Positions 34,403-60,172 of a stretch of 62,572 bases of DNA are shown piece after piece (the stretch's first letter is position 1; every line of letters starts with the position of its first letter). The stretch lies in the IMG/VR virus record IMGVR_UViG_2671180890_000001, one strand, 5' to 3'. A program made the translations under genes and the position numbers. The notes under the pieces were generated by a model. The model was not told the origin of the DNA, did no database searches, and saw only the letters and a program-made list of their open reading frames with translations. The stretch comes from a virus (Duplodnaviria > Heunggongvirae > Uroviricota > Caudoviricetes).

Positions 34403-34418
34403 TGCGACCACGGTCGCA
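34403..34418. promoter_or_regulatory. sopC-like centromere palindrome (TGCGACCACGGTCGCA), site 1
   Basis: 16 bp perfect palindrome; one G-to-C change per half-site from the F sopC core TGGGACCACGGTCCCA. Confidence 0.6.
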
Positions 34419-34622: not shown

Positions 34623-34638
34623 TGCGACCACGGTCGCA
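34623..34638. promoter_or_regulatory. sopC-like centromere palindrome, site 2
   Basis: TGCGACCACGGTCGCA. Confidence 0.6.
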
Positions 34639-34658: not shown

Positions 34659-34970
34659 TTATGCTACAGAGGAACAAGCTGGCGGGTAATTCAGCGTAGT
34701 GAATACCGGCATCTCCATCTTGTATGCGTAATGATACTCAGCAGTTGCTCCAGCAGACGCTTTCCAGCCAGGAAGCATCAAAATAGCATCAGCACAACGA
34801 AGCATTGCAAAGCAAATATCCATGTATTCACGTTGTGTCAGACCATTAGGCAAAGTGGCTGGATTCAAGACAGAGTGACCATGTCGTGACAAACGATCTG
34901 CCTCTTTATTAAAGGCGTCACGATTAAAGTTCTCATATCCCGTCATTGGCCCGGCAATATAAATTTTCAT
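34659..34970 (-). CDS. DUF4406-like protein (nucleoside 2-deoxyribosyltransferase-like fold)
   Basis: 103 aa; N-terminal MKIYIAGPMTG motif. Confidence 0.55.
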   Translation of the reverse strand: MKIYIAGPMTGYENFNRDAFNKEADRLSRHGHSVLNPATLPNGLTQREYMDICFAMLRCADAILMLPGWKASAGATAEYHYAYKMEMPVFTTLNYPPACSSVA

Positions 34971-35011: not shown

Positions 35012-35461
35012 TTAATTCAGGCATTGCGTCTTGATGTATTCCTGCAAGTAGTTAACCTGCGCAGTTATCCTGTCGATCCCACTTCGGAGACGGTAATAAT
35101 TGAGTTCAGCATCTGCTGTAAGTCTTGGGCTTTCTCCATTGCCCATGCCGCTGGCTCCGGTCGTTGACTTTGCACAGGTGGCGGCGACTTGCAGGCGCTT
35201 ACGCCCAGCAGAAACATCAGCACGGAGGCTTTCGATAGTCGCGTTAGCATCAGCAAGCTCCTTTGTATATCTGGCATCGAGTTCCGCTACGTCACGTTGA
35301 CGCTTCTGCATATCAGCGATTGTGGATGTGGCTTTATCGCGCTGCTCTTTGTAGGCGATGGCGTTATCACGGTAATGATTAACAGCCCACGACAGGCAGA
35401 CGATGATGCAAATAACCAGAGCGGAGATAATCGCGGTTACCCTGCTCATTGTTGACCCCAC
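35012..35461 (-). CDS. Rz: Spanin inner membrane subunit Rz
   Basis: Lambda Rz-like ([30 protein letters not shown]). Confidence 0.9.
35065..35277 (-). CDS. Rz1: Spanin outer membrane lipoprotein Rz1, embedded in Rz in the +1 frame
   Basis: Lipobox LGVSAC followed by a proline-rich segment; true start probably an internal Met. Confidence 0.75.
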
Positions 35462-35946
35462 AAACAGACTTCACGCTCAATCTCACGACGAGTCATCAGG
35501 CCTTTCCATTGCTTACCGCCAGCAGATATCCAGCGACGTAGCTGATCACATGCGCCTTTGATATCGCCCTGGTTTATTTTGCGAAGAAGCGTCGATGTTC
35601 TGAAATTACCAGCACCCACGTTGTAAACGAACGAGTAAAGAGCGCCGCGCGTTGTTTCCGGTATATCGACTTTGATGTACGGGTTAATTTGTCTGGCGAC
35701 AGTGGCAAGGTCTTTATTCAGGAGAGCTTTGCATTCTGCTTCGGTATACGTTTTACCTAGCATGATGTCTTTTCCAGTGTGTCCGTAACATACAGTCCAT
35801 ACGCCAACAATATCTTTGTATGGTATGTAACTGACACCTTCCAGACCATCGTTACCACTTGGGCCAGTGATGAGCATAGACGCTATGGCAATAGCCCCGC
35901 CACCAATAGCCGCTGTGACAGCTTTGCGTAATGATGACTGCATCAT
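35446..35946 (-). CDS. Endolysin, lysozyme-type with N-terminal signal-anchor-release segment
   Basis: 166 aa; hydrophobic Gly/Ala-rich N-terminus then lysozyme-like core. Confidence 0.8.
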
Positions 35947-36215
35947 ATTTCCTTCGGTGCTCTCTTCCCCAGCTCTCCAATAACCATCGCTGTAGCAGAA
36001 AGATTATTGGTATTAGTTTTATCCAATATGTCCTGCAATATCTTCGTGCGCTTCATCTGCTCGCGTTTATTGAGCCGGTATGTAAGCACACCGAGGATAA
36101 TGCTGAACGCGACACCGATAATGAAGCCCCAATCCTGCAATGACAGGCTGGCAAAGAACGCAGCAAGACCAGCGCTACCATAAGATGCACTGCTGTATCG
36201 TTCATCCATCTTCAT
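35943..36215 (-). CDS. Holin (pinholin-like)
   Basis: 90 aa, hydrophobic transmembrane segments and charged C-terminus, directly upstream of endolysin. Confidence 0.6.
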
Positions 36216-36310
36216 ATCTCTTACCTCGCAATAGTTGCTGAGGTTTCGGCTTGGAAACTATATGGCGAAAATAACCCCTACCAAAAACGGCAGGGGAATA
36301 TATTCTCCAG

Positions 36311-37432
36311 TTACTCAAATAACTTTTTCACTTCATCAACTGTCTGAAGATAACGTTCGCCCTCAATCTCAATACCTATTGCCTGACGTCCTAACTTCAG
36401 CGCAGCTTTAATAGTTGAGCCTGATCCCATAAAGAAATCGGCAACGATATCTCCGGGGCGTGAACTACTCTTTATAATATGTTCCATCATCGCTGCAGGT
36501 TTTTCACATGGGTGCTTGCCAGGATAATATTGCACAGGAGGAAACTCCCATACATCGGTATAAGGTACATCAGCAGTAACATGAAATGGACGGCGTAAAT
36601 TTTCATACTGAGCCTTCAAATCATCATACTGCTTCTTTACTTCCTCATAATGCAATTTCAGATCGCTATAACGCTTTTCATGTTCTGAATAATCAACATT
36701 AAAAGGATATGGACACGGGACACCGAGTGAATCTGCCTTCCTGCGAAATAATTCGCATAGTTTATTAAAATCAATTAATGATGGAAGCCGCCACTGCGAA
36801 TAAGAAAACCAGTGTGAACACATCTGCTTTCCTGTCGCTGAATTAATGTCTGCGGCTGATATATCTAACTGACGGCGAGCCAGCGAAAAAGCATCAATTA
36901 GTGGAGAAAAAATATTTTTTCTTAAATCTGCACATTTTGAAGCATAACCTGACTGACCTTTAGCATAACCTGACGCGCCGTAATGCTCTGCAAATAATAT
37001 TCTTTCAGTAGCAGGAAAATAAGCCCTTAAACTTTCTTTATGACAACCGCGCCACATACCACTGGGTTTAGCCCAAATGATATGGTTCAGAACATTGAAA
37101 CGGTCGCGAGTTAATAATTCAATTTTTGACGCAAGGCGAGAGCCGGTAAACATATACAGGCTGCCATTAGGGGCCAATATCCGCCAAAATTCTGCCAAAA
37201 ATTCGTCAATCCACCCCAAAAAGTCAGCATCGCTATCCCACTGGTTATCCCATGCGTTAGCCTTTACGCCGAAGTATGGTGGGTCTGTTGCAATCAAATT
37301 GACCGAGTTATCAGGGATGGTTTTGATAAATTGCAGAGAATCTGCGCAAACGAGTTGTGCGCCATGAATATTAGTGGTTTTGAACATAGCTATTATTTTT
37401 TTGCCTGGGTAAGCTAACCCGGCGATGCGCAT
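36311..37432 (-). CDS. Orphan DNA methyltransferase (N6-adenine or N4-cytosine, DPPY class)
   Basis: DPPY catalytic motif near the N-terminus and FxGSGST AdoMet motif near the C-terminus; no adjacent restriction enzyme gene. Confidence 0.85.
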   Translation of the reverse strand: MRIAGLAYPGKKIIAMFKTTNIHGAQLVCADSLQFIKTIPDNSVNLIATDPPYFGVKANAWDNQWDSDADFLGWIDEFLAEFWRILAPNGSLYMFTGSRLASKIELLTRDRFNVLNHIIWAKPSGMWRGCHKESLRAYFPATERILFAEHYGASGYAKGQSGYASKCADLRKNIFSPLIDAFSLARRQLDISAADINSATGKQMCSHWFSYSQWRLPSLIDFNKLCELFRRKADSLGVPCPYPFNVDYSEHEKRYSDLKLHYEEVKKQYDDLKAQYENLRRPFHVTADVPYTDVWEFPPVQYYPGKHPCEKPAAMMEHIIKSSSRPGDIVADFFMGSGSTIKAALKLGRQAIGIEIEGERYLQTVDEVKKLFE

Positions 37433-37517
37433 CGCGGGTGGGCTTTAGGTTCAGCCTATAGCTCTGGCATGGGTTGACCGCAGGACAAGCTGCAACTTGT
37501 CCTGCGCCCACTTTTCA

Positions 37518-37550
37518 GGCACAAAAAAACCGCCATAAAGGCGGCTTGTT
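37518..37550 (-). terminator. Strong Rho-independent terminator (candidate tR-prime-like late terminator) upstream of the methyltransferase
   Basis: GCCGCC-TTTAT-GGCGGC followed by T7 on the minus strand; additional hairpins nearby. Confidence 0.45.
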
Positions 37551-37632
37551 GGCTGTTGGGTACAAAAAACCCAACTTAACAAAACAATAACTAAAAACCG
37601 TCATTTTGCCAAGCTTTTTCGTTTTTGTGCTG

Positions 37633-37648
37633 TGCGACCGTGGTCGCA
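37633..37648. promoter_or_regulatory. sopC-like centromere palindrome, site 3
   Basis: TGCGACCGTGGTCGCA within the 20 bp palindrome TGTGCGACCGTGGTCGCACA. Confidence 0.6.
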
Positions 37649-37654
37649 CAGCTT

Positions 37655-37882
37655 TTAGAAAGTTGCCTGCTTATATTCATCGGTCAAAGAATATCGACCA
37701 GATCCGCTACGCTTTGCAACCCCAAAACAGATCATCTGTTCGATGATAAATTCAACGGCAGCTTGACTCAAAAAACAGGCTTCGCTTAACTCTTTCAGGG
37801 AAATGCGTGGGTATCCACGCATAACACATTCCACACTCAGGGCCGCTTCAGTCATATTTCCACGAATTTCATTAATATTCAT
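37655..37882 (-). CDS. Hypothetical small protein
   Basis: 75 aa ORF. Confidence 0.4.
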   Translation of the reverse strand: MNINEIRGNMTEAALSVECVMRGYPRISLKELSEACFLSQAAVEFIIEQMICFGVAKRSGSGRYSLTDEYKQATF

Positions 37883-37895
37883 AACGCCTCTCTAA

Positions 37896-38135
37896 TCAAT
37901 CTTGAAACTGGAAATCAACATCAGCCATAAAGCGGTTCAACTCAGCCAGTTTTGGCCCCATAGTCCCAACTAAGCGACCAGCCAGTCGGTCTGTTAGGTT
38001 GGTACTGTTGAAACCATATTCCTTTTCGAAACGTTCAATCTTCTGCCACAACTCATACAGTTCGTTAGCTATCTCCGCAACGTCGTCGCGCATTTTTTCG
38101 TTACCTTGATAATTCATAATATCCTCCAAATTCAT
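37896..38135 (-). CDS. Hypothetical small protein
   Basis: 79 aa ORF. Confidence 0.4.
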   Translation of the reverse strand: MNLEDIMNYQGNEKMRDDVAEIANELYELWQKIERFEKEYGFNSTNLTDRLAGRLVGTMGPKLAELNRFMADVDFQFQD

Positions 38136-38282
38136 ATAGTTAGTGGGTTATTACCCCTCAATGACACGAACTGTAACTCTGCCAAACGAACACATCCAGT
38201 GTTATTTTTCGCTTTTTAGTGAAATTTTTAATTTGCGTTGTTTTCTTGTTTTAGTGTATTTTATGGATATGGAGGCTATAAT

Positions 38283-38594
38283 ATGTTTAACGTGATAACC
38301 CACCCTGCAGCACTGGATGAACTGCTTGAACTACCAGATGATTTGCGAGGTCGCATGACCAGATTAATTGAGCGACTGGAGAAAGAAGGCAACAAACTGA
38401 AGATGCCCCATAGCCGTGTAATAGGTGGAGGGCTTTTTGAACTACGAGTAGGGGATAAAAACATCGCAAGAACGCTGTACGCCTACGCGACTGGTAACGA
38501 AATTTATCTATTGCATGCATTTGTAAAAAAGACACAGAAAACACCGGTGAAGGCTATCGAAATCGCCAGAACTCGCCTGAAGGAGATGAACTGA
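38283..38594 (+). CDS. Type II toxin, RelE/HigB superfamily (phage Gp49-like)
   Basis: About 103 aa from MFNVITHP; toxin precedes antitoxin as in hig modules. Confidence 0.7.
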   Translation: MFNVITHPAALDELLELPDDLRGRMTRLIERLEKEGNKLKMPHSRVIGGGLFELRVGDKNIARTLYAYATGNEIYLLHAFVKKTQKTPVKAIEIARTRLKEMN

Positions 38595-38881
38595 TGAAAG
38601 CGAAAGGCATCCCGTTTAACGAAGTAAAAGAAAAACTCCTCAACACTCCAGAAGCCGTCAAAGGATATGAAGAGGCCGACAAAGAGCTGGAGATGGTCGA
38701 AATGTTATACGAAATGAGGGAAAGAGCAGGTTTAACGAAATCAGCTCTGGCTGAACGAATGGGGTTGCGACCGTCAGCCATCAGCCGCCTGGAAAGCAAT
38801 CCTTTAGGGGCAAGTATGAAAACTTTGGCTAAATATGCTCATGCCTGCGGCGCAACCATCGATATTCGCGCTGTTTATTAA
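38594..38881 (+). CDS. HTH (XRE-type) antitoxin, HigA-like
   Basis: 95 aa; HTH segment LTKSALAERMGLRPSAISRLE; ATGA overlap with the toxin stop. Confidence 0.7.
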   Translation: MKAKGIPFNEVKEKLLNTPEAVKGYEEADKELEMVEMLYEMRERAGLTKSALAERMGLRPSAISRLESNPLGASMKTLAKYAHACGATIDIRAVY

Positions 38882-42835: not shown

Positions 42836-43136
42836 TTTCTTGTGCGACCACGGTCGCACCCTCTCTGATTTCCAAGTAACGCTTAATCCAAAGATTTTCT
42901 ATATGCTTATTACCTGGCTGATTTGATAAATACCAATCGGCAATTACAGACTGCTTATTACTATCTGGTCGTGTCCTGTAACCACAAGTTGGACACCAGA
43001 TAACATATTCATTTCTTACCCCCGAATACCTTAATTCTGGCTTCGACGGTTTCCTGAACATAACTTGTTTACAAAGACAGAATGGCACTTCCTGCCCGAT
43101 GGCGTTTGATGATTTCACTGCGCTTCTCCGCCGCAT
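42816..43136 (-). CDS. Zinc-ribbon protein, possibly Lar-family restriction alleviation
   Basis: CxC ... CPTCG cysteine pairs; start uncertain. Confidence 0.35.
   Translation of the reverse strand: MRRRSAVKSSNAIGQEVPFCLCKQVMFRKPSKPELRYSGVRNEYVIWCPTCGYRTRPDSNKQSVIADWYLSNQPGNKHIENLWIKRYLEIREGATVVAQENENNAI
42843..42858. promoter_or_regulatory. sopC-like centromere palindrome, site 4
   Basis: TGCGACCACGGTCGCA. Confidence 0.6.
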
Positions 43137-43779
43137 TTAATAATGCAGTTCGATTTAAGCTCAGACATCGCGACTTAATTAAAAGCCAGCGTTCTTTATA
43201 ATCTTGTCTCCAGCTATCAATAGATATATTCAGTAGAAAACTCAGATGCCTGTCCTGTTCTCTCTCATCAACTGCCTCAGCACACGTAAGTTCTGATTTA
43301 ACCTGTTGTGCCGCGTAATAAATCAATTTCCGCATGGCTTTTTTCGTGGAGGCCTTCATTTTTTTAAAGCCGCCCCCCGAATGAGCAACCAGAAAATCAA
43401 GCCATAACCACTGACAAACAATCACATCATTGTTGTAATCAGGCTTGCATCCGTAGCAATAATAAAGCCAGGCTGATTCCTCGTTATTCAACTGACCAAT
43501 AGCCCTGCGCCAGCTGGCGCTCTGAAAATCAATATCAGTGAGCAACATTGATGATTGTTTAAATGTTTTCCCCTGGTGGAATCTAACCGGCTCAGCAGGA
43601 ACGGACACTTCGTATGAGTTATCATCCCCCACACTGATTGACCGGACTGGTTTATTGTTAAACCGTCCTGATCTACCGAGACGCATCTGCTCAAGCTGGA
43701 CCTCCAGAATGCCACGCTGGCGATAATGAACATCAGCCAATGCCGTAGAGACGCAGCTGCGTATATACTCAAGCTCCAC
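43069..43779 (-). CDS. Putative late antitermination protein Q-like
   Basis: 236 aa; position immediately downstream of cro on the same strand; family assignment not verified. Confidence 0.4.
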   Translation of the reverse strand: MELEYIRSCVSTALADVHYRQRGILEVQLEQMRLGRSGRFNNKPVRSISVGDDNSYEVSVPAEPVRFHQGKTFKQSSMLLTDIDFQSASWRRAIGQLNNEESAWLYYCYGCKPDYNNDVIVCQWLWLDFLVAHSGGGFKKMKASTKKAMRKLIYYAAQQVKSELTCAEAVDEREQDRHLSFLLNISIDSWRQDYKERWLLIKSRCLSLNRTALLNAAEKRSEIIKRHRAGSAILSL

Positions 43780-44923: not shown

Positions 44924-47900
44924 ATGACATTAAACGATTTCTATGCGGATCGCTTTGGCAGCGATCCGTTCTCGCTAATTGAAGCAGCACGGGATGAACT
45001 AACCGAGCTGGCACAGATGGCTGGTATCAACTGGCCTGCCTGTTCCGACAACATCCAACTCAACCCTCGCGGGGGGGTTGAGCGTTACTCTTCATACAAT
45101 AAAACATCTCCAGAAGCTCTCGAAAAGAGCCTGAAAGGACGCGTAGAAATTTACTCCAGGCTGGAACACAGCAAAGGGATTGATTACCCGTTCATTAACT
45201 TCGTCCATAAAGGCAGCGATGCTGGCTCATGGAGCGGTTTCTCCTTCCTGTTTTCTGAATATCGCCGTGAGCAACAACGGAATAATGCGACCGTGGTCGC
45301 ACAACCGGAAGAAGAACGGGAAAGAATAGAACGTCAGGCCGAAGCACGTCGTCGCCGTGAAGAACAAAAACGAATTAATGACCTGAAAAACAACCAAATG
45401 GACCATGAACGTTTGCTGGGATGGCTGGCATTCCACAGCGCGTGGGAACATGCTCCGGCTGAAGACGGCTCATGGCCATATGCGATTAAAAAAGGTATTC
45501 GTGACGTTTTTAGTTCATGTGATGTGCGTCGCGTGACCAGTCACGACAGTGCGAAATGGAGCCGGGGGCCAACCACATATATGGCTATCCCTCTGGCTCA
45601 CCTGGACAGTCGTTATGATGGTCGTATTGTGGGTTGGCAGCGAATCGACAAACAAGGTGGGAAATACCAGACCAGCGCAGTAACCAGCGGCGATTTCGTC
45701 GGTGCCTGCTTTGTTATCGGTGAGCTGAAAGGGGCGCAAAACATCGCTGTTACAGAAGGTTTTGCTACTGGTGCATCCATCTGGCTTGCCACGAAAAAAG
45801 ATAAACGCTTTGACGCTGTGGTTGTCGCTGTATCCGCTAACAACATGGTTCATGTTGTGGAACAACTGGTAAACATGTACCCGGCGGCAAAAATCACCTG
45901 CGCACTGGATAATGACCGGAAATCTGCCACAGAAGGAAAAGGGAATACCGGCCTGCGGACTGGCTATGAAATCTTATCGAAATTCAACGATGTCCGCTGC
46001 GTCTATCCAACTTTTGAAGACGATCCGCAAATGGAGTGCAGTGACTTCAACGACCTGCACAAACTACGTGGACTTCGTGAAACAGCACGTCAACTGTTTG
46101 CAACAGCAAACCGCCTGAAAACCGGTACTGATTTGCTATCTCTGACGCTCAACCGCCTGAAGACAATTAAGCGGGATAACCGTCGTACTTTTGCCAAAGA
46201 GCTGCTGAGAGCGGTGGATATTGGCATGCTAACCTGTCCGGTTCCTAACAGTCCGTCAGATTTATTTAACATGTTCTGCATCGTTCTGCGTGAAATGGGA
46301 CTGGAAAATATCTATCGTGCTACGGTAAAAGACCACATTGCCCGTCGCCTGAATAAAAAGTGCCGTATTGCCCAGGCTCCGCGCTCTTTCAGCGAACGCA
46401 TAACTGATCCCAATAAACGACCTCAACATATCACCTATAAGCGTTTTGAAACTTCGGTAATGACCGATGATGTCCTGAAGTACGTGCAATCACTACAGGG
46501 GATAGTCATCGTCCGTGCTGGTATGGGTTCCGGCAAATCTACTGGATTGTTACGACCGTTAATGCATAGCTCAGAACGTGGTATCTCTGTTGCTCACCGT
46601 GTCTCCCTTATTGGTGGCCTGTGGGAAATGATGACAGAAGGAAAAGGTGTAAAAGCCGATATCCTGCACTATCAGGATCCTGGCTATCAGGAAATGGCTC
46701 CATACGCCAGTAAACTGACCATCTGCATAAACTCGATTGTTAAAAACTGCTGGCAACCGTTGATGCGCCAGCACGACTATTTTGGCTTTGACGAGGCCAC
46801 ACAAGGGCTACGTGCCGTTCTTTCCGGTCGGGCTATGGAAAACCCGGTGGCTGTATTCAATACGCTAATTGACGCGCTGGCCAGAACGGAACAACACCCA
46901 ATCATGGTGGATGCTGATGCGAACGATCTGCTGGTTGACCTGGCTGAACTGGCTATGAAACGCCGTGAAGAACTAGGTTTACCGGCATGGCTGCAGATCC
47001 ACGTAATTGAATTACCTGTTGATGTTCGCAACCGCGAAACAGGTGAGCCAATCCGGGTTTTTTATACAGAAAAAGATCGCATCATGACCGAGGTGGTGAA
47101 AGCTGTATCGGATGGCGAAAAAATCATGTTGGCCACCGACAGCTCCACCTTTGCAGAAGATGTGACAGCCACCCTGAGAATGCATTTTCCTGGTAAGAAA
47201 TTTCTGTGTGTAAACCAGAAAAACAAACCAGAGCCAGAAGTTGAAGCATTTACCAATCAACCGAAAAAGATGGTCAAAAAATACGACGGCCTGATTTATA
47301 GCCCGTCTATTTCATCCGGCGTGTCGATTGAGCAAAAACATTTTGACCGTCATTTCGGCATGTTCTGTGGTGAAGTTGTACCCAGCGACGCAGTGCAAAT
47401 GCTACGCCGCGACCGTACAGCAAAAGAATTTATTATCGGCTTTGATAAAGCTCGTGCAAAACGTGAAACTGACCCGCAAAAAATAGAACGAGCATTCGCC
47501 CAGGCATTGCTTGCTACTGCAGGTATGAACGGTGAACTGACGGATGTCGTTTTCGATGGCGACCGTATATCAATGGGGGTGGCCAATACCGACTTTACCA
47601 GGATGAAAATTAAAGCAGCCGCAATTGAAGCGTCTGCACGTAACGACTACGCCAGCAACATGATCTGCATCATGCACAGCGACGGTTATAAGATATCGCC
47701 GCTGGCCACCGATTATGCTGCAAATGATATCGGTAAAGATCTGCGTAAAGAAGCGCGGGATATTGTGTGGGAACAGACACTGGATCTGCATCTCAATACA
47801 GAAACTCCACAAGAATCAGAGCGTGAAGAACTGCTAAAAAAACGCGCGCTGACGCTTGAAGAACAGGCAAAACTTGTCCGCTGGGATATTGAGAACGAAC

Positions 47901-48919
47901 TGAAACTACCGGTTGAAGAAGGCACGCTGAAATTCTATTTCGATGGTGCTCGAGACAAAGTTCGCCGCTATGAAACAATGCTTTTAGATGAGGTAACAGC
48001 TCGTCGTTACGACCGGGAAGAAGCAGCCATCAATTTTACCTACGCATACCGTCAGGCGGGACAGTGGCAATATTTTGTAGTGACCGCAATGACTCGCGAG
48101 CAGGCTGATGATGTCTTTAAAACTAAATTCCCTGGAATAATCGACTACAAGGTAAAAGCTACTCCTACTGTTGAAGTCGGGGCGCGCGGTTTCTATGCGC
48201 TTAAATCAGCAACTCTCCGGCAGTACTTTATCGACTGCGGTATCAACCCTGAGACTATGACCGGCGAGGCGACTCAGGAGCGTCTCAAATTTGCTCGAGA
48301 TAACCTCATGACAGCCGAACGCCGTGACCTGTTGAATAACGTTCTGCACATTGGTGGTTTTATGACGCCAAAAGGGAAGCCTAAAGTGCCGGAAGCGTTG
48401 TTTAAAAACATTTGCGACTCTCTTGGCCTTAAAACAGGTAAACGTCGCGGCAGAGACGGCGATAAGCGTCCAACCTTGCGTTTTGTTGAGCCTGAATCAG
48501 CGGCATTTATGCTGGATATTCTTGCTCAGCGTCAGAAAGATGGCCTAACCCTGAAAACGCGTAAAGCCGAGAAGACTGCCATCGAAATGGATCGCGATTT
48601 GGATCTCAATATATATATGGATGATAAAACGCGATCCACAAACGAGCAGGTTCAAAACGCCCCTCATTCAGTAATTTCTGAGGCTTTGGCTGTGTTGCCA
48701 GTGGTTGTACCTGAGTCCTGGGCGATGAGTGCGCTTTCCGGTGAGGAGCTGGCCACTATGTCATCATGGTCATCAGCTAGCATAGCTATGACGTTTGCAT
48801 CTCTGTACCTCACAGAGTTCATGGATCACTTATCCAGCAATGAACTGCGGCGGTTACGTGAATACATTACCGGGAATAGCCCATGCAGCTACGAAGAGCA
48901 GGGCGCTTTCTATGGGTAA
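44924..48919 (+). CDS. repA: RepA multifunctional replication protein (primase plus helicase), N15 RepA-like
   Basis: 1331 aa; TOPRIM-like CALDNDRK region; Walker A GMGSGKST. Confidence 0.9.
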   Translation: MTLNDFYADRFGSDPFSLIEAARDELTELAQMAGINWPACSDNIQLNPRGGVERYSSYNKTSPEALEKSLKGRVEIYSRLEHSKGIDYPFINFVHKGSDAGSWSGFSFLFSEYRREQQRNNATVVAQPEEERERIERQAEARRRREEQKRINDLKNNQMDHERLLGWLAFHSAWEHAPAEDGSWPYAIKKGIRDVFSSCDVRRVTSHDSAKWSRGPTTYMAIPLAHLDSRYDGRIVGWQRIDKQGGKYQTSAVTSGDFVGACFVIGELKGAQNIAVTEGFATGASIWLATKKDKRFDAVVVAVSANNMVHVVEQLVNMYPAAKITCALDNDRKSATEGKGNTGLRTGYEILSKFNDVRCVYPTFEDDPQMECSDFNDLHKLRGLRETARQLFATANRLKTGTDLLSLTLNRLKTIKRDNRRTFAKELLRAVDIGMLTCPVPNSPSDLFNMFCIVLREMGLENIYRATVKDHIARRLNKKCRIAQAPRSFSERITDPNKRPQHITYKRFETSVMTDDVLKYVQSLQGIVIVRAGMGSGKSTGLLRPLMHSSERGISVAHRVSLIGGLWEMMTEGKGVKADILHYQDPGYQEMAPYASKLTICINSIVKNCWQPLMRQHDYFGFDEATQGLRAVLSGRAMENPVAVFNTLIDALARTEQHPIMVDADANDLLVDLAELAMKRREELGLPAWLQIHVIELPVDVRNRETGEPIRVFYTEKDRIMTEVVKAVSDGEKIMLATDSSTFAEDVTATLRMHFPGKKFLCVNQKNKPEPEVEAFTNQPKKMVKKYDGLIYSPSISSGVSIEQKHFDRHFGMFCGEVVPSDAVQMLRRDRTAKEFIIGFDKARAKRETDPQKIERAFAQALLATAGMNGELTDVVFDGDRISMGVANTDFTRMKIKAAAIEASARNDYASNMICIMHSDGYKISPLATDYAANDIGKDLRKEARDIVWEQTLDLHLNTETPQESEREELLKKRALTLEEQAKLVRWDIENELKLPVEEGTLKFYFDGARDKVRRYETMLLDEVTARRYDREEAAINFTYAYRQAGQWQYFVVTAMTREQADDVFKTKFPGIIDYKVKATPTVEVGARGFYALKSATLRQYFIDCGINPETMTGEATQERLKFARDNLMTAERRDLLNNVLHIGGFMTPKGKPKVPEALFKNICDSLGLKTGKRRGRDGDKRPTLRFVEPESAAFMLDILAQRQKDGLTLKTRKAEKTAIEMDRDLDLNIYMDDKTRSTNEQVQNAPHSVISEALAVLPVVVPESWAMSALSGEELATMSSWSSASIAMTFASLYLTEFMDHLSSNELRRLREYITGNSPCSYEEQGAFYG
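45286..45301. promoter_or_regulatory. sopC-like centromere palindrome, site 5, inside repA codons 121-127
   Basis: TGCGACCGTGGTCGCA encoding NATVVAQ. Confidence 0.6.
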
Positions 48920-49103
48920 TCAGTGGATATTATCTTTGTGTCTCTTGCTTTGTGTGTTCCAGCAATGGTTTTGGTTCATAGATCGAAAGTCTCACAAGGA
49001 AAACATGAAGGCCAGGAAGGCGATGTTTCGTGGTGAACAACTCGCGCAGACTTATCGTATGTGGAAACGTTTCTATCGTGATTTTTCGGTGAACGGGGAG
49101 TAA
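48912..49103 (+). CDS. Hypothetical small membrane protein
   Basis: Internal Met MGNQWILSLCLLLC; overlaps repA stop. Confidence 0.4.
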   Translation: MGNQWILSLCLLLCVFQQWFWFIDRKSHKENMKARKAMFRGEQLAQTYRMWKRFYRDFSVNGE

Positions 49104-49107
49104 AAAT

Positions 49108-49434
49108 ATGTCTACTACTGCATTTTTGGACAAACTTGATTACCGTCAGCTGCAGTTTTGCCGGGATGAATGCGATCGACGCATTAAGGCTATCCAGGAG
49201 GAAGAAAAAAAGGTTGCCTGGGCTGTAACAGATCGTGGCCTTATCTTTGGCTGGTTCCGTACGGAGGATTATCTGAAAGCAGTGGAATTATTGGCGCGTG
49301 AGGCTGCTGAGCGTTGGGAACGAGCCGACAAGGAAAACCCGGAGACGAAGTATGAACTGAATCTCTACATCGAGGGCAACCGTCTACCATTGTCAGAGTA
49401 TAACGCTTTGTTTGCTGATGGTGAGTGGGGTTAA
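49108..49434 (+). CDS. Hypothetical protein
   Basis: 108 aa ORF. Confidence 0.5.
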   Translation: MSTTAFLDKLDYRQLQFCRDECDRRIKAIQEEEKKVAWAVTDRGLIFGWFRTEDYLKAVELLAREAAERWERADKENPETKYELNLYIEGNRLPLSEYNALFADGEWG

Positions 49435-49832
49435 AAATGGCTGTTCAATCATACAAATACGAATCCCCTTTGGATAAGGGATACATTCGTATCAAGTTAA
49501 GTCGTTCTCAACATAAGGCTATTTTTAAGGTAAGGAAAATTCGCATATTGGATGCGTATGCGTATTACTACAACGGTGAAAATGTTGTTGTTGAACACTT
49601 TCTTGCACGATGGTTTGTAGCTCTGATTTTTGTCCCTCTCCTGTTAATTGGTACTTTTGTGGATGGTTTTCCTAGTACATGGCGGGAGATAAAGAAAGGC
49701 CTATTCCCGCGTAAGTACGGCAGATTTTCGCAAGATAGCTGGCGAGTTATACCTGGTAAACATTCTGTGGATGAGCAGCCGATTGTTGATTACTGGTTGA
49801 AGCGTATGGCTGATGCTAAAAAAGTTGATTGA
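49425..49832 (+). CDS. Hypothetical membrane protein
   Basis: 135 aa ORF with a central hydrophobic segment. Confidence 0.5.
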   Translation: MGLKMAVQSYKYESPLDKGYIRIKLSRSQHKAIFKVRKIRILDAYAYYYNGENVVVEHFLARWFVALIFVPLLLIGTFVDGFPSTWREIKKGLFPRKYGRFSQDSWRVIPGKHSVDEQPIVDYWLKRMADAKKVD

Positions 49833-49921
49833 ATAGTGATGACTGTTCAAGTTAAACCGTTCTCGGCATATTTTATTTAATGGAATAACATATTATTAAT
49901 CAAATAGGTTAAGTTAATATT

Positions 49922-50734
49922 ATGCGTAACAAAAAAACAACAGCTTTATTACTCTCTATCTTGTTATTATCTGGATGCACTTATCAATATGATAATAAGG
50001 CATCAACGGACGTTGAGTATAAATTCGAAAAAGAAAAAAGAGTACCTATCAACTCTGTTGGTGATTTTAGCAGCAAAATACTCACAGGTAAGGAATTTAA
50101 TAGAATTATTGCATCAAAGATAGATGATGGTTCATGGCGTGGATATGTCGTTCACTCATTAACATACGCGCCATACAACAACGTTTTAACATCTCAAGGT
50201 TTGTCTATCCCTAGAAGTATCACATACTCAGGAACATATCTTAACCGTGATTTTGTTGAGAATAGCGGTAGTGATAGCGTGATAACATCTCGAGATATGT
50301 CTGGATGGTATGGTTTTCATGTCGATTCCTCTGAAATAACAAAGCATGGAAGCTATGTTGGTGCTAATGCTTTTGGAATATCTGCTGATGTAGAAGTGTT
50401 AAATACTTTAGGTGCCGAAATTATCTTTGGTAGTACACAAATAAATGAAGGGAACCCTGAAACAATATGGGCAGATATTGATATAAAAGGACAAATACCA
50501 AAAGATGTTAATGTAAAAGACCTTAGAATTGAATATTTAGCAAAGATAAATGGGTTAAGCAGTAATCATATTGATATAACATCACCTACTATTTTTAACC
50601 CGTCAGATATGAGCCATAAAACTCAGGTTTTTATGGGTGAGTTATTAGCCGCGCGCCTAATAAATATTAAAACGGGAGAAATTTATCCAGTACAGCTAGA
50701 GTGGGTGTTCCGTTCGCGTGAGGCTTTCTTATAA
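49922..50734 (+). CDS. Moron lipoprotein, function unknown
   Basis: 270 aa; signal peptide with lipobox LLSGC; strongly AT-rich gene. Confidence 0.6.
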   Translation: MRNKKTTALLLSILLLSGCTYQYDNKASTDVEYKFEKEKRVPINSVGDFSSKILTGKEFNRIIASKIDDGSWRGYVVHSLTYAPYNNVLTSQGLSIPRSITYSGTYLNRDFVENSGSDSVITSRDMSGWYGFHVDSSEITKHGSYVGANAFGISADVEVLNTLGAEIIFGSTQINEGNPETIWADIDIKGQIPKDVNVKDLRIEYLAKINGLSSNHIDITSPTIFNPSDMSHKTQVFMGELLAARLINIKTGEIYPVQLEWVFRSREAFL

Positions 50735-50864
50735 CGGAACAATAACATTGTTCATGTTCTGATCGTTTGTTCAAGCAAACTATAAAAACACCTGTCCCCG
50801 TGACTGGTCACGGGGTAAAATGTCTTTGCAAATTATTGACGTGTGCGTCGTTTTGGAGGTAAAG

Positions 50865-50950
50865 TCACCTCGCTGCGGTAAATCCCGCAGTCGGGACTTC
50901 GCAATCCTGGCAAAACGAAGCGCACAACACGCGCCAGCGTGTTTTTTTGT
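50865..50950 (+). ncRNA. Candidate c4-like cis-antisense regulatory RNA upstream of icd-ant
   Basis: TTGACG and TAAAGT promoter-like hexamers, CTGCGG/CCGCAG stem-loop, ACACGC/GCGTGT terminator plus T7; two 8 nt blocks complementary to a site about 100 nt downstream. Confidence 0.4.
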
Positions 50951-51111
50951 GTGTATAGACCTGCGCATATCCGAATTATGGTGGCTCAGGTGGGGCTGAC
51001 TTCGGTCGGGCCGGTTTCTTCGTTTACCGGTATTGCGAACCCCGCCTGGGCTACCACCAATAAAGAGATTCGCAACTCTGGTGGTAGCACGACCAATAAA
51101 ACGGAGTGCAT

Positions 51112-51279
51112 ACCATGTTCAAATTCAAATTTGCGGCAGTCGTTCGCACAGACAAAAAGTCCCACATTCATCATCTTTCCACTATCGCGTCATCTGAACG
51201 GGAAGCTCGTCGCCAGTTCGCCAGCCGGTTTGTCCTGGTATTGTCTGCCCGTATTCCGGTGCGCGAGGTGGCTGCATGA
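51112..51279 (+). CDS. icd: Icd-like cell division inhibitor (55 aa)
   Basis: MFKFKFAAVVRTDKK ... SSEREARRQFAS pattern; not in the ORF track because under 60 aa; coordinates approximate. Confidence 0.45.
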   Translation, partial: TMFKFKFAAVVRTDKKSHIHHLSTIASSEREARRQFASRFVLVLSARIPVREVAA

Positions 51280-51509
51280 ATCAGGTAAAAATGAACACTG
51301 TTGGCCTGCTGGAATCGTTGGATGAACGTCTGGCTCAGGTCTATGCGCTCGTATCATCAGCCCATCGGACAGTCTCCAGTTGTGAGGCGTCGATTTACCT
51401 CTCAGAGGCTGGAAAACTTCTGCAGATTGCGTGTGAGTTAACGCATGAAGCACAGGGATATTCTGCGTCTCTCTCGTCGCACTTGCTGCGCGATAAGGAG
51501 GCTGAATGA
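51276..51509 (+). CDS. Hypothetical protein in the antirepressor operon
   Basis: 77 aa ORF, translationally coupled to the flanking genes. Confidence 0.5.
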   Translation: MNQVKMNTVGLLESLDERLAQVYALVSSAHRTVSSCEASIYLSEAGKLLQIACELTHEAQGYSASLSSHLLRDKEAE

Positions 51510-52288
51510 GCGCGTTAGCAGTCTTTTCCTTTCAGGAAGAGCATCAGGTTCGTGTAGTGATGATTAACGGTGAGCCGTGGTTTGTGGCTAAGGATGTATG
51601 TGATGCTTTAAGACTCGTTAATTCCCGGAAGGCGCTAATGTCTCTGGATGAGGATGAAAAGGGTGTAACTTTAAGTTACACCCCTGGCGGAGAGCAAAAG
51701 CTAAATATTATTTCAGAGTCAGGTCTATACACCCTGATCCTCCGCTGCCGTGACGCGGTGAAGCAAGGCACAACAGCTTGGCGGTTTCGCAAATGGGTAA
51801 CGAACGAAGTCTTGCCCTCTATTCGCAAAAATGGAGAGTACGTTTACATCGAGCCTGAGCCAATGCGAGCAGCGGAGCCGTTGAACTGGAGGCAGAAAGA
51901 GTATCTGCGAGGGCTGATTAACGATATAGCACAAAGTTTTCAGTACCGAAATGCCTGGATTAGCGGTGTATGGTTAGCTTTGCGTCGGGCGTGTCGTAAT
52001 CCATCCCCGAACCCCATAACGGTTGATGATTTGCCAGCAATTACGGCAGAACTGCGCCGGATTTTGACGGCTGCTGAGTCGGCATTGGGGAACATGCGCA
52101 CGTATGAACGAGAGTTGTTGCGTGATGTTGTTCGTGGGGGTAGGCGGAGTATGTCGTGTGGTGATTTACCCATCACCGATATTAACTCTGATCTGGAAAA
52201 GGCGTTACCCGCGCATTTTGAACTGGCAGTTCAAAAACTTGAGCAGTTATCCGCGCAGCTAAAGCCAGCAGAAATCACCAATAAATAG
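51506..52288 (+). CDS. Antirepressor with Bro-N domain
   Basis: 260 aa; N-terminal FSFQEEHQVRVVMINGEPWFVAKDVCDAL. Confidence 0.75.
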   Translation: MSALAVFSFQEEHQVRVVMINGEPWFVAKDVCDALRLVNSRKALMSLDEDEKGVTLSYTPGGEQKLNIISESGLYTLILRCRDAVKQGTTAWRFRKWVTNEVLPSIRKNGEYVYIEPEPMRAAEPLNWRQKEYLRGLINDIAQSFQYRNAWISGVWLALRRACRNPSPNPITVDDLPAITAELRRILTAAESALGNMRTYERELLRDVVRGGRRSMSCGDLPITDINSDLEKALPAHFELAVQKLEQLSAQLKPAEITNK

Positions 52289-52459
52289 GGTTGACCAGCC
52301 CGAATTTATGCCCTTCTTAGAGAAGGGAAGCCTCGCAGTCGGGGCGGTGATGTCTGTGGTTGCAGCCGCGTTTCCTCCGTTACTTCTGCCCTTTGCAGGG
52401 GGCAGGCGAGGTAGGTCACACAACAAGGCACCGTTAATTCGGTGCCTTTACTGTATGCT

Positions 52460-54355
52460 TTAACCGAAATATGTCAGCCATGCTAACTGCATTGCTGACA
52501 TGGGGCTGTTTGCACTGCCGGACCACGCATAATTCTGGCCATTATAATGAAACTCAACAACGTATGAGCCATCACCAATATTTCTCACCGGCTTAAATAC
52601 CGGCTTAGATACAGGCGAAGAAGGTGCAGGCGGTTGCTGTTCTTCTACGCTATCTTCCTCTTCCTCTTCCTCTATCTCAATTTCGTCGTCATCCAGATCG
52701 TCATCCTCTGATAATTCATCCGCCAGTTCAGGTATTGCTTCCAGTTCTTCTTCGTCAGGCATAACGATTTCTGGAGTATCTATTTTCAGTTGCCATTGTC
52801 CGTTTTCGCCAACAAATTGCCCCAGAGCATCAGCAGCAAATTCCAGGTATCGACTAATCATTGTTGGGCTAAATTTGAACGCTCTTAGAGTGCTGTTCGT
52901 GATTTTTATAGAGGGGTCCTGCTCTACCAGCTGCTTAACTGTGTTATGCAGACGAACCCCGGCATCTCCTCTGGCGAATCCAGGCATTTCGTCATCAAGC
53001 TGCTGCAATGCTTCCAGCCTGGTATTTTCGTTTCCAGTATTTGGCCTCCATGTCTTTGAGAAGTTGGCCAGCTTGAATTGCTTATAGTGTAATTGAGTGT
53101 TTTCATCGTCATGGCCTAAAATTTCCATAAAGAAAACATCTTCATCTACGTTTTTCCAACGAGGATCTACGCGGAAAAACATTTCATACGCAATACGGGC
53201 ATAAATAGCACGACTATCTTTATAAACACGGCGGTCATCTTTGAAAAATGATTTAACCCACGGGTTAAAAGCCTTTGCTAATATGGCATTAATACGTCCG
53301 TTTTCAGAGCGTGTGTCGTTATCTCCATAACCTTTAACGACATCATCAAAATCAGATGCTGCTGGGCATGAGCGAAGTACATTTATTAAATAAACAAATG
53401 TTTTTGCTTCGCATAATGTATATATTTTTCTGGTTATATCATCAGAAGTTCTTTTTTTAGCTTGGCCTAAAAAATCAACGGTATACTTACCAGAAACAGT
53501 AAATGTACCTTGATACATAATCTCAATCATTCGTCTTCCTGACAATGCAGCAAGTGCAAATGCCAAAGGAGCCATACCTGAACGAGTGTTTAGATTATTT
53601 AATGTAGCAGGGCTATTTATAATATCGTAAATAGCTTGCATATATTTAGGGTAATCAATGACCACCACGTTACGTTTCTTATTGTGCAGAACGTCCGCCC
53701 ATCGTTGCTGGATAGATGCACGTTCGGCAGGGCTTAGTTGAAGATGATAGAGAATCTCATGGTTAACTTTTAGCTGATTCAACTCCTCAAGTAAGGCAGA
53801 TCCTTGCTGTAGTAATTTATATAAATAATCGCGCTTATCTTTCCAGTTATCGCTAGTTAAATCAGAAATGGCGAATTGCCACTCTTTATATTTATTTGAT
53901 AATTTCAATAACTTATTATGACTTTTGTTATCGCCAATTCTGATATTAGATAAATCTTCTGATAGAGGGAGAATTAATTTTAATTTTGCCTGTAAAGCTG
54001 ACATTCTCTGGCGAATATCGGCAGCAGGTAGAGAAAGCCATGACAATAGCTCCTCATTATATAAAGGATACTTTTCAGATAGGCGATGTATATTTTTTTC
54101 AAAGCTATGATGAAGTTTATCATCAAACCGTTTTCTGGCCCTGCTCATATAGGCATTGAATGTGTTGGCTGTAATTCTTTTTTCTAATCCTTTCCCCCTA
54201 AACTTTCGCTTGTCATTAAATAATGCATTTTTAAATTTTAATGCAACAGCCTTTATTTTTTTTGTTTTCTCCCCTTGAGGACGGTCAGAGTTATCTATTG
54301 ACTCAACATCGCTAACAAGTGAGTTTATTAATTCACCGATTTTTACTTTGCTCAT
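52460..54355 (-). CDS. telN: Protelomerase TelN
   Basis: 631 aa; adjacent to the telomere palindrome; N15 TelN-like length and position. Confidence 0.9.
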   Translation of the reverse strand: MSKVKIGELINSLVSDVESIDNSDRPQGEKTKKIKAVALKFKNALFNDKRKFRGKGLEKRITANTFNAYMSRARKRFDDKLHHSFEKNIHRLSEKYPLYNEELLSWLSLPAADIRQRMSALQAKLKLILPLSEDLSNIRIGDNKSHNKLLKLSNKYKEWQFAISDLTSDNWKDKRDYLYKLLQQGSALLEELNQLKVNHEILYHLQLSPAERASIQQRWADVLHNKKRNVVVIDYPKYMQAIYDIINSPATLNNLNTRSGMAPLAFALAALSGRRMIEIMYQGTFTVSGKYTVDFLGQAKKRTSDDITRKIYTLCEAKTFVYLINVLRSCPAASDFDDVVKGYGDNDTRSENGRINAILAKAFNPWVKSFFKDDRRVYKDSRAIYARIAYEMFFRVDPRWKNVDEDVFFMEILGHDDENTQLHYKQFKLANFSKTWRPNTGNENTRLEALQQLDDEMPGFARGDAGVRLHNTVKQLVEQDPSIKITNSTLRAFKFSPTMISRYLEFAADALGQFVGENGQWQLKIDTPEIVMPDEEELEAIPELADELSEDDDLDDDEIEIEEEEEEDSVEEQQPPAPSSPVSKPVFKPVRNIGDGSYVVEFHYNGQNYAWSGSANSPMSAMQLAWLTYFG

Positions 54356-54525
54356 CTTTCCTCTCCTGATTATCCGCTCGGATTATCGTAACACAATTTG
54401 AGAATAAGATAACTAATAACGCGTTAACTTAGGCACAAACTAACAGAACACAACAACGGATAATAAATAAAAACACAATATCGGAACGTTAAAATTTGTT
54501 CCTTGACTTTGTTCTGAAAATCAGC

Positions 54526-54567
54526 ACATAATTCCCCATTATACGCACGTATAATGGGGAATTATGT
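54526..54567. repeat. Right hairpin telomere (telR) read-through: same 20 bp arms around a CA centre at 54546-54547
   Basis: ACATAATTCCCCATTATACG-CA-CGTATAATGGGGAATTATGT. Confidence 0.85.
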
Positions 54568-54737
54568 GCTGATTTTCAGAACAAAGTCAAGGAACAAATT
54601 TTAACGTTCCGATATTGTGTTTTTATTTATTATCCGTTGTTGTGTTCTGTTAGTTTGTGCCTAAGTTAACGCGTTATTAGTTATCTTATTCTCAAATTGT
54701 GTTACGATAATCCGAGCGGATAATCAGGAGAGGAAAG

Positions 54738-56633: not shown

Positions 56634-56804
56634 AGCATACAGTAAAGGCACCGAATTAACGGTGCCTTGTTGTGTGACCTACCTCGCCTGCCCCCTGCAA
56701 AGGGCAGAAGTAACGGAGGAAACGCGGCTGCAACCACAGACATCACCGCCCCGACTGCGAGGCTTCCCTTCTCTAAGAAGGGCATAAATTCGGGCTGGTC
56801 AACC

Positions 56805-57587
56805 CTATTTATTGGTGATTTCTGCTGGCTTTAGCTGCGCGGATAACTGCTCAAGTTTTTGAACTGCCAGTTCAAAATGCGCGGGTAACGCCTTTTCCAG
56901 ATCAGAGTTAATATCGGTGATGGGTAAATCACCACACGACATACTCCGCCTACCCCCACGAACAACATCACGCAACAACTCTCGTTCATACGTGCGCATG
57001 TTCCCCAATGCCGACTCAGCAGCCGTCAAAATCCGGCGCAGTTCTGCCGTAATTGCTGGCAAATCATCAACCGTTATGGGGTTCGGGGATGGATTACGAC
57101 ACGCCCGACGCAAAGCTAACCATACACCGCTAATCCAGGCATTTCGGTACTGAAAACTTTGTGCTATATCGTTAATCAGCCCTCGCAGATACTCTTTCTG
57201 CCTCCAGTTCAACGGCTCCGCTGCTCGCATTGGCTCAGGCTCGATGTAAACGTACTCTCCATTTTTGCGAATAGAGGGCAAGACTTCGTTCGTTACCCAT
57301 TTGCGAAACCGCCAAGCTGTTGTGCCTTGCTTCACCGCGTCACGGCAGCGGAGGATCAGGGTGTATAGACCTGACTCTGAAATAATATTTAGCTTTTGCT
57401 CTCCGCCAGGGGTGTAACTTAAAGTTACACCCTTTTCATCCTCATCCAGAGACATTAGCGCCTTCCGGGAATTAACGAGTCTTAAAGCATCACATACATC
57501 CTTAGCCACAAACCACGGCTCACCGTTAATCATCACTACACGAACCTGATGCTCTTCCTGAAAGGAAAAGACTGCTAACGCGCTCAT
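56805..57587 (-). CDS. Bro-N antirepressor (fold-back copy)
   Basis: Identical 260 aa translation. Confidence 0.7.
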   Translation of the reverse strand: MSALAVFSFQEEHQVRVVMINGEPWFVAKDVCDALRLVNSRKALMSLDEDEKGVTLSYTPGGEQKLNIISESGLYTLILRCRDAVKQGTTAWRFRKWVTNEVLPSIRKNGEYVYIEPEPMRAAEPLNWRQKEYLRGLINDIAQSFQYRNAWISGVWLALRRACRNPSPNPITVDDLPAITAELRRILTAAESALGNMRTYERELLRDVVRGGRRSMSCGDLPITDINSDLEKALPAHFELAVQKLEQLSAQLKPAEITNK

Positions 57588-59170: not shown

Positions 59171-59259
59171 AATATTAACTTAACCTATTTGATTAATAAT
59201 ATGTTATTCCATTAAATAAAATATGCCGAGAACGGTTTAACTTGAACAGTCATCACTAT

Positions 59260-59984: not shown

Positions 59985-60172
59985 ATTTTTACTCCCCGTT
60001 CACCGAAAAATCACGATAGAAACGTTTCCACATACGATAAGTCTGCGCGAGTTGTTCACCACGAAACATCGCCTTCCTGGCCTTCATGTTTTCCTTGTGA
60101 GACTTTCGATCTATGAACCAAAACCATTGCTGGAACACACAAAGCAAGAGACACAAAGATAATATCCACTGA

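Follow-up and report, generated by a model that had tools for sequence, protein, structure and literature searches.

Analysis of a 62,572-nucleotide (nt) stretch of viral DNA (IMG/VR record IMGVR_UViG_2671180890_000001, Caudoviricetes; the whole stretch is called the window here) revealed that its minus strand encodes, at 36311-37387, an orphan beta-class N6-adenine DNA methyltransferase (MTase), probably of 358 amino acids (aa), which by its PF01555 match and by homology is the orthologue of gp52 of phage N15 and a member of the M.EcoGII family. We consider it likely that this MTase of the N15 gene 52 type is the first gene of a late operon dependent on the antiterminator Q, and that the enzyme has low specificity, serves against restriction and is gated by its leader. 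The gene, its orphan status and its site behind a late promoter and terminator were already annotated in N15 (2000) and phiKO2 (2004), and the enzyme family has been characterised since 2016-2018. The new point is a covarying RNA element before the MTase gene, together with its link to a family of small winged-helix proteins (phrog_331), for which a regulatory function may be proposed.

The methyltransferase gene and its family

The longest open reading frame (ORF) at the locus (36311-37432, minus strand, 373 aa) contains the motifs DPPY and FFMGSGST and matched Pfam family PF01555 (N6_N4_Mtase) at 159.8 bits against a curated cut-off of 26.7 (E = 1.2e-46, residues 44-361). The initial annotation had described an MTase of 373 aa with DPPY and FxGSGST motifs; the motifs and the class stand, but the length probably does not. 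A methionine lies exactly 34 residues before DPPY in every homologue examined (N15, an Enterobacter phage, phiKO2, PY54, SfV and M.EcoGII), and in several of them an in-frame stop codon lies just upstream of it. The true start is therefore probably ATG 37387-37385, which gives a product of 358 and not 373 aa, with DPPY at residues 35-38 and FFMGSGST at residues 318-325. The extra 15 codons of the longer ORF are conserved leader sequence. ATG 37432 was rejected as the start, as it lies inside a conserved hairpin-loop motif of that leader (GAUGCGCA, in P4, described below) and the homologues with upstream stops begin 34 residues before DPPY.

The motif order is that of the beta class, with motif IV (DPPY) N-terminal to the S-adenosylmethionine-binding motif I (FxGxG) and the recognition region between them. 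The nearest solved structures are all of this class (M.RsrI, a DpnA-like MTase, M.MboIIA and CcrM), and the best of them, M.RsrI, matched in two stretches in the order DPPY then FxGSG. Among phage records, tblastn found 93 with full-length MTase matches. The window enzyme is 83.8% identical to N15 gp52, 61.5% to phiKO2 gp52 and 58% to PY54 ORF60, and a large set of lambdoid phages follows at 55-57% (Stx2 phages, phiP27, SfV orf48, mEp460 and 1720a-02). Compared by BLASTP with M.EcoGII, whose sequence was taken from Supplementary Table S1 of PMC11551740, it showed 56% identity over 359 residues (E = 2e-142) with two gaps only, starting from Met16 of the long ORF, and the alignment spans the central target-recognition region along its full length. 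OS31_p25 of a Serratia phage is 55% identical.

Start codons are placed differently in existing records. N15 gp52 (AF064539, 41387-42475; 6046-7134 in our locus L003) is annotated from an internal methionine as a protein of 284 aa, though the ORF has 362 aa. The MTase of PhiR46_1 (14970-16091) is annotated 15 codons too early, and the same record places a 53-aa 'hypothetical protein' between gp51 and the MTase (14790-14951), apparently across promoter, terminator and leader.

An endonuclease elsewhere on the phage or in the host, which would make the MTase one half of a restriction-modification (R-M) system, is a very faint prospect. The host chromosome, where such a gene might lie, is outside the window. 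However, no restriction endonuclease adjoins the MTase, as it would in a type II R-M system, the immediate neighbours being a gp51-like gene and the holin gene, and no restriction gene is annotated anywhere in PhiR46_1, a 46-kb phage with 98% identity. Dozens of unrelated temperate phages carry the same gene as a solitary MTase of their late region, and a non-specific MTase has no meaningful cognate endonuclease. The earlier statement that no restriction partner lies nearby is thus borne out, with gp50- and gp51-type genes and holin, lysozyme and Rz genes as the neighbours and none for restriction in PhiR46_1.

The late transcription unit

The window carries the gene order of an N15-type late unit, from the SopB-binding inverted repeat to the lysis genes, with Q on the same replicon. 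In the GenBank records of N15 and phiKO2 the order is gp51, partition site, -35/-10, terminator, gene 52 methylase, terminator, and holin and later genes; in the lambdoid phage SfV it is Q, terminator, orf47, MTase, terminator and holin (S). The inverted repeat, the -35, the -10 and the terminator were all conserved in a five-phage alignment, in which the window aligned base for base. A position in the late region between Q or a terminator and the lysis genes, as expected of the M.EcoGII family, was found in the window, SfV and OS31.

The unit begins with a putative SopB-binding centromere repeat (37629-37652), the equivalent of N15 IR3 by position, with 11-nt arms that are 100% complementary. 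The N15 IR3 oligonucleotide f3t (Table 4, PMC7205306) matches the N15 row of the five-phage alignment at this palindrome, and the phiKO2 record has a 'putative plasmid partitioning site' at the same position. The 16-mer core of the palindrome, TGCGACCACGGTCGCA, occurs five times in the window, where 0.55 copies are expected (34403-34418, 34623-34638, 37633-37648, 42843-42858 and 45286-45301). The perfect 11-bp hairpin of the initial annotation is this palindrome. The sopC-like site that had been listed beside it is the same object, which reduces three upstream features to two.

On the minus strand, a consensus scan predicted a pR'-like late promoter at 37584-37612, with -35 TTGGCA (37612-37607), a 17-nt spacer and -10 TATTGT (37589-37584), which aligns with the -35/-10 'putative late promoter' annotated in N15 and phiKO2. 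The initial transcribed region (37555-37583) consists of TTTTnnTAnGTTGG (37573-37583), directly after the -10, and a 7-bp hairpin at 37575-37555. TTTTnnTAnGTTGG is invariant at the homologous positions of N15, phiKO2 and PY54 and contains a -10-like TAAGTT, and the hairpin after it stays paired across phages through differing sequences. At lambdoid pR' promoters, a sigma70-dependent pause at a -10-like element is the point at which Q is loaded. By analogy, TTTTnnTAnGTTGG and the hairpin are possibly such a pause and Q-loading region.

A tR'-like intrinsic terminator (37517-37547, minus strand) closes the short promoter-proximal transcript, with an 8-bp stem (37547-37527) of five GC pairs and a T7 run; together with the preceding hairpin it folds as RNA at -23.5 kcal/mol (z = -4.1), and it is an annotated terminator in N15 and phiKO2. 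The strong GC-stem terminator with seven T residues that had been noted from the sequence is therefore real. A second intrinsic terminator (36265-36296, minus strand; 9-bp stem 36296-36275 with six GC pairs; -16.3 kcal/mol, z = -4.3) lies between the MTase and holin genes, annotated at the same place in N15, phiKO2 and SfV. The terminators are thus not stacked in front of the gene, as had been claimed: one lies upstream and one downstream. The lysis cassette follows (35012-36215, minus strand), with holin (35943-36215), lysozyme (35446-35946) and Rz (35012-35461). Lysozyme and Rz matched Phage_lysozyme (4.5e-46) and Phage_lysis (8e-37), the holin families were below cut-off, and an Rz1-like lipoprotein ORF with a lipobox-like LLGVSAC is embedded in Rz (35065-35277). 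The Q-type antiterminator gene itself (43069-43779, minus strand; PF06323 Phage_antiter_Q, E = 4e-84) is the equivalent of N15 gp40 and phiKO2 gp38, and the N15 record annotates gp40 as 'late transcription activator'.

In the mechanism that we propose, transcription would start at the sigma70 late promoter (37612-37584), just downstream of the SopB centromere site, and without Q would stop at the terminator 37547-37527 after ~50 nt. With Q, polymerase would read through this terminator into the leader, the MTase gene and the second terminator (36296-36275), and on into the holin, lysozyme, Rz and virion genes. A Q-antiterminated late unit is established knowledge for the N15 phage group, and for the window it is supported by homology and anatomy. 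The initial annotation had proposed such a unit; the annotated order in N15 and phiKO2, the base-for-base alignment, the promoter and the Q gene all agree with that proposal, which is not new. To judge by the title of work by Ravin, Rech and Lane from 2008 (reference 39 of PMC11652158), the N15 Sop system is said to facilitate late gene expression.

Specificity and role of the enzyme

What is known of the specificity of the family comes from three enzymes. M.EcoGII modifies adenines whatever their sequence context. It is not made in the lysogen and is harmful to clones that produce it constitutively, and late, protective expression was proposed by its own authors (PMC5778455). Murray et al. 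called the MTase of phage 1720a-02 'very similar' to M.EcoGII (PMC5778455). OS31_p25 has 'extremely relaxed' specificity and its gene lies directly before holin and lysozyme genes, and PhiARM81ld_p56, from an Aeromonas linear plasmid-prophage, is a non-specific MTase (PMC7556043). By homology, the window enzyme is probably a non-essential, non-specific N6-methyladenine (m6A) MTase, most likely one with little or no preference for the sequence around the adenine. This would make progeny DNA resistant to many adenine-sensitive restriction systems of the next host. As non-specific methylation is harmful to a growing cell, expression would be kept off in the lysogen, and the 130-nt element before the gene, with its missing Shine-Dalgarno sequence, probably adds a post-transcriptional gate. 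The earlier suggestion that the enzyme is made late against host restriction agrees with the proposal of the M.EcoGII authors and is, like the Q-dependent unit, not new (PMC5778455). Given the non-specific activity of the characterised relatives, there is no reason to expect a methylation motif particular to this phage, and the motif check recommended with the initial annotation would mislead, as would its rule that the absence of an attributable motif refutes the idea.

A sequence-specific orphan MTase, Dam-like or with another short motif, is rather improbable; such an enzyme would have a regulatory role (timing, packaging or replication) or shield the DNA from one host system. Many records label the homologues 'DNA adenine methylase' or 'dam', and the window enzyme has a 9-residue central insertion relative to M.EcoGII. 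Another MTase, M.PflMI, which we take to be sequence-specific, shares with M.EcoGII the name of a similarity cluster. Against these points, the three characterised members (~55-58% identity, with measured values of 56% for M.EcoGII and 55% for OS31_p25) all have non-specific or extremely relaxed activity, the target-recognition region aligns full length with that of M.EcoGII, and the 'dam' labels are automatic annotations.

Several points weigh against a non-specific, protective enzyme. An identity of 56% to M.EcoGII is no guarantee of an equal lack of specificity. The cluster that contains M.EcoGII in a similarity network was named M.EcoGII-M.PflMI, after the second MTase as well (PMC11551740). 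Heavy m6A would sensitise the DNA to methyl-adenine-dependent (type IV) restriction. Finally, a transposon insertion in the orthologue (ORF62) of the Yersinia telomere phage P840 blocked neither lysis nor lysogeny (PMC10612081), and the gene is therefore dispensable in the laboratory.

A conserved structured element before the methyltransferase gene

The gap between the terminator and the MTase ATG is filled by a conserved structured element of 130 nt (37390-37519, minus strand; covariance model and covariation), so that the gene does not lie immediately behind the terminator as had been stated. The predicted pairing gives a three-way junction and two hairpins, with P1 formed by 37510-37506 and 37443-37439, P2 by 37505-37479, P3 by 37477-37451, P4 by 37437-37419 and P5 by 37414-37403. 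The element can be aligned across N15, phiKO2 and PY54 although their MTases are only ~60% identical, and its hairpin arms differ yet stay complementary. The SfV gene carries the same element directly 5', and it is present at loci whose protein is 95% identical to M.EcoGII.

We gathered 160 loci encoding MTase relatives, extracted the upstream regions and kept 41 leaders with pairwise identities below 93%. The structure was set by hand: P1 (UGGGC/GCCCA) closes a three-way junction with P2 and P3, and hairpin P4 follows, giving 31 counted pairs; P5 was seen by inspection, is inconsistent in the alignment and stands outside the 31. A covariance model (CM) built from the leader alignment and this structure gave exactly one match per locus, each abutting the downstream start codon, and its match in the window covers 37382-37519 (68.9 bits, E = 8e-16). 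In the model-based alignment 88.1% of cells were paired, against 73.3% after shuffling (a control that related sequences without structure can exceed) and 30-47% with slid partners (a control that keeps relatedness), and 22 of the 31 pairs showed changes on both sides. A structure-blind MAFFT alignment gave 80.8% against 72.1% shuffled and 30-44% slid, with both-side changes in 18 of the 31 pairs. RNAalifold applied directly to the MAFFT alignment yielded nothing beyond P1 and fragments. The fold of the window element has a z of -4.1 on the sense and -4.5 on the antisense strand.

It is quite improbable that the conservation between terminator and ATG reflects shared ancestry or a DNA-level site, such as a gp51 operator at the P4 palindrome, with no functional RNA structure. 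P1 is invariant save for one G-C to C-G flip and so gives no covariation support itself, the P4 loops read as palindromic DNA (TGCGCA or GTGCAC) between inverted repeats, the usual neighbour is a winged-helix gene, and the limit of the shuffle control favours this reading too. However, 18-22 of the 31 pairs change on both sides with pairing kept, and the slid-partner control reached 30-47% where 81-88% was observed. The P2 and P3 stems vary between clades in sequence and in length and are still paired, and no gp51-like gene is present in 22 of the 80 distinct leader contexts.

With the SfV leader as a blastn query against 50,697 phage records, 60 records matched, at one place each; among the listed places with known MTase coordinates all were directly 5' of the MTase, and the listed places as a whole have either no annotation or a 'hypothetical protein' alone. 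The N15 and phiKO2 records leave the element unannotated, and literature searches found no earlier description of the leader or of an antisense RNA. A search of window positions 37250-37750 against Rfam 15 gave sub-threshold chance matches only (E up to 10) and no leader family on either strand, and none of six related loci had an Rfam 15 match on the leader at E up to 0.1. The sub-threshold AgrB, ctRNA and isrK matches were rejected, being located on the terminator hairpins. A small ORF within the leader was likewise rejected: the 43-53-aa ORFs, of which PhiR46_1 has one annotated, are not conserved, and homologous leaders differ by 1-2-nt indels throughout.

Orthologues from Vibrio, Aliivibrio and Psychromonas have a different conserved leader, GCCUUGAGUACCUGAGACCCA...UGGAGAGGAAGCA...GUAUUCAAGGCUC, ~150 nt 5' of the MTase, with a long-range closing helix and variable hairpins, then a normal Shine-Dalgarno sequence (loci L040, L042-L046, L057, L059, L063, L067, L069, L078, L099, L105, L108, L113, L117, L125, L128 and L142-L144). 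Rfam gave no match on this alternative leader in the two loci searched (L099 and L144). Downstream of the MTase region in L144, on an Aliivibrio chromosome, a group II intron domain was found (RF02001, 5174-5343, 54.7 bits).

A possible sense switch or antisense RNA

By reading of the sequences, no Shine-Dalgarno sequence precedes the MTase ATG in any group that carries the element. The invariant UGGGCG has two mutually exclusive partners, GCCCA (which forms P1) and the 5' arm of P3 (CGCCCGU or ACCCAU). For the second pairing, the five core pairs can form in 49-55 of the 55 distinct sequences and the two outer pairs in 37 and 39, and sequences folded singly adopted either one state or the other. 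Adoption of the second state in lambdoid leaders leaves the 3' arm of P3 available for a helix with the 9-16 nt preceding the AUG, and self duplexes there reach -10 to -11 kcal/mol against -7 to -8.5 kcal/mol for cross duplexes. The corresponding values for the N15 group are -6.85 (self) and -6.83 kcal/mol (cross), the window having a 6-bp AGCUAU:AUAGCU helix of -7.0 kcal/mol. A helix that sequesters the start codon is thus supported in the lambdoid relatives, but it lacks support in the N15 group, where self and cross energies are equal, and this is a point against a gate of this kind in the window.

The strand evidence for the element is likewise divided. The element may be a cis-antisense small RNA (sRNA) read from the plus strand, made up of the three-way junction and a short U run, which would keep the toxic MTase off in lysogens in the manner of a type I antitoxin or of P22 sar. 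We regard this as less likely than not. In P3, 20.2% of the cells are A.C on the sense strand and 1.2% are G.U, and P3 is paired in 95.7% of cells when read as antisense against 76.7% as sense. The RNAalifold consensus is -34.2 kcal/mol for antisense against -17.0 kcal/mol for sense, and of the 55 sequences folded singly, 38 have the lower energy on the antisense strand (49 for the junction core). In 40 of the 55 relatives an extended -10 (TGnTAnnnT) lies in antisense orientation at one fixed position, and the plus strand of the window forms a closed junction followed by UUUU (-59 kcal/mol, z = -4.5). On the other side, the correctly spaced TG is missing in the N15 group including the window (TGGGTAAGCT), no good -35 was found, the U run has just 2-5 nt and the leader keeps a constant distance from the ATG. 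G.U pairs are frequent on the sense strand in the alternative helix AUGGGCG:CGCCCGU and, by our own reading of the aligned sequences, in P5. For the anti-start helix, G.U and A.C counts were mixed.

We keep two models, a sense switch in the 5' untranslated region (UTR) and a cis-antisense sRNA, either of which would restrain a toxic enzyme. On this basis we propose tentatively, as a possibility a little short of an even chance, that 37390-37519 is an undescribed regulatory RNA specific to M.EcoGII-family genes, either a two-state 5' UTR or a cis-antisense sRNA, which would gate a host-toxic non-specific m6A MTase, with gp51 perhaps as a trans-acting factor similar to Com of phage Mu.

The gp51-like neighbour and Com-like reading frames

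Upstream of the late unit lie two small genes on the minus strand: a gp50-like gene (37896-38135; phrog_4830, E = 5.5e-40), syntenic with gp50 of N15 and phiKO2, and a gene for the gp51-like small winged-helix protein (37655-37882; phrog_331, E = 3e-32). SfV orf47 belongs to the same family (E = 6e-35). In an iterated profile search, a phrog_331 gene was found 50-280 nt upstream and on the same strand in 85 of the 136 MTase loci, among lambdoid and telomere phages (for example 2160-2354 in L006). Of the 80 distinct type I leader contexts, 58 have such a gene. Only 1-16 nt separate its end from the leader in lambdoid loci; telomere phages have the SopB site, promoter and terminator in the interval between gp51 and the leader. 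The phrog_331 protein may be a regulator of the MTase. No significant relative of gp51 with a solved structure was found in the PDB, where only generic winged-helix matches appeared (all E >0.04).

A different kind of small ORF was found in five Vibrio loci, where the MTase gene is directly preceded by a Com-like zinc-ribbon ORF of 36-42 aa (LRCPxCNKLLC...KCxRCK; L083 2355-2471, L101 2325-2441, L102 2331-2441, L104 2335-2460 and L118 2325-2453). After each ORF comes a hairpin that covers the ribosome-binding region of the MTase. In the four of these loci searched with the CM (L101, L102, L104 and L118), the leader match ends at the start codon of the Com-like ORF. These ORFs matched phrog_6417 ('translational regulator') at 3e-5, and the Pfam family Zn_ribbon_Com was below cut-off. 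The window has no such small CxxC...CxxC ORF, and hence no upstream Com activator gene of the kind found in Mu com/mom.

The replicon carrying the gene

The window is an N15-like linear plasmid-prophage of Escherichia coli, as it encodes the protelomerase TelN (631 aa), SopA, SopB, a CI-like repressor and the Q antiterminator. It is 98-100% identical to deposited records. Across its 2.3 kb, the region 35900-38200 is 98% identical to the Escherichia phages YDC107_1 and PhiR46_1, and ~74% to phiKO2 and an Enterobacter Ravinvirus. Of 5426 complete E. coli genomes, 15 contain the 1.45 kb around the MTase, every time on a plasmid (~36-75 kb, mostly ~46-50 kb).

The window is mirror-symmetric about 6164/6165 and 54546/54547 (regions 1-12331 and 46940-62151), with arms that are 100% complementary and 2 nt apart. 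The contig thus continues around the covalently closed hairpin telomere at either end, and its mirrored ends are probably a long-read assembly artefact of a hairpin-ended plasmid. The real replicon has ~48.4 kb (6165-54546), one end being the sopA side and the other the telN side.

Other genes in the vicinity include an overlapping toxin-antitoxin pair at 38238-38881 on the plus strand, the toxin being Gp49/HigB-like (PF05973) and the antitoxin of the HTH_3 type; the two correspond to N15 gp49 and gp48. Downstream of the lysis genes is a gene for a DUF4406 protein, similar to nucleoside 2-deoxyribosyltransferases (34659-34970, minus strand), and just downstream of these genes two of the SopB-site cores lie only 220 bp apart. 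ARAGORN found neither tRNA nor transfer-messenger RNA genes in the window (0 and 0).

Significance

We know of no account of how the expression of M.EcoGII-type enzymes, which are widely used as tools, is naturally controlled. The covarying RNA and its winged-helix neighbour are a testable candidate for silencing a genome-wide adenine methylase until lysis, and this candidate control element spans N15-like plasmids to Stx and SfV-type prophages. Methylome surveys of strains with such plasmid-prophages should expect near-global m6A in virion DNA and no motif, and the lack of a motif in lysogens is uninformative about the gene.

Comparison with known systems

The closest counterparts are gene 52 of N15 (AF064539; Ravin et al. 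2000) and of phiKO2 (AY374448; Casjens et al. 2004), which encode the orthologous protein in the same order of genes and sites from gp50 onwards. Both phages are, like the window, linear plasmid-prophages with TelN, SopAB, dispersed SopB sites and Q. The window differs from N15 in having five SopB sites, where four were described (PMC7205306), and in its late -10 (TATTGT against TATCTT). M.EcoGII, from a prophage of E. coli O104:H4 C227-11, shares with the window MTase the same N terminus, the order DPPY...FxGSG, an alignable centre and a prophage location; it sits in integrated lambdoid prophages, unlike the window gene, and the window enzyme has the 9-residue central insertion. PhiARM81ld_p56 and OS31_p25 belong to the same family as the window MTase, in different hosts.

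A more distant parallel is the com-mom system of Mu. In Mu-like prophages, the mom position is occupied by the non-specific adenine MTases Hin1523 and Hia5, with com-like genes in front of them (PMC3299994). Mom and the Hia5-type enzymes belong to protein families different from that of the window MTase, for which translational control is proposed here by inference. The Vibrio relatives of the window MTase share a Com-like ORF with Mu com-mom, whereas the window is without one. What Mu com-mom and the com-like/MTase pairs (Hin1523, Hia5 and Nma1821) have in common with the system proposed here is a late, host-toxic and broad adenine modification that is protective and post-transcriptionally restrained (PMC3299994).

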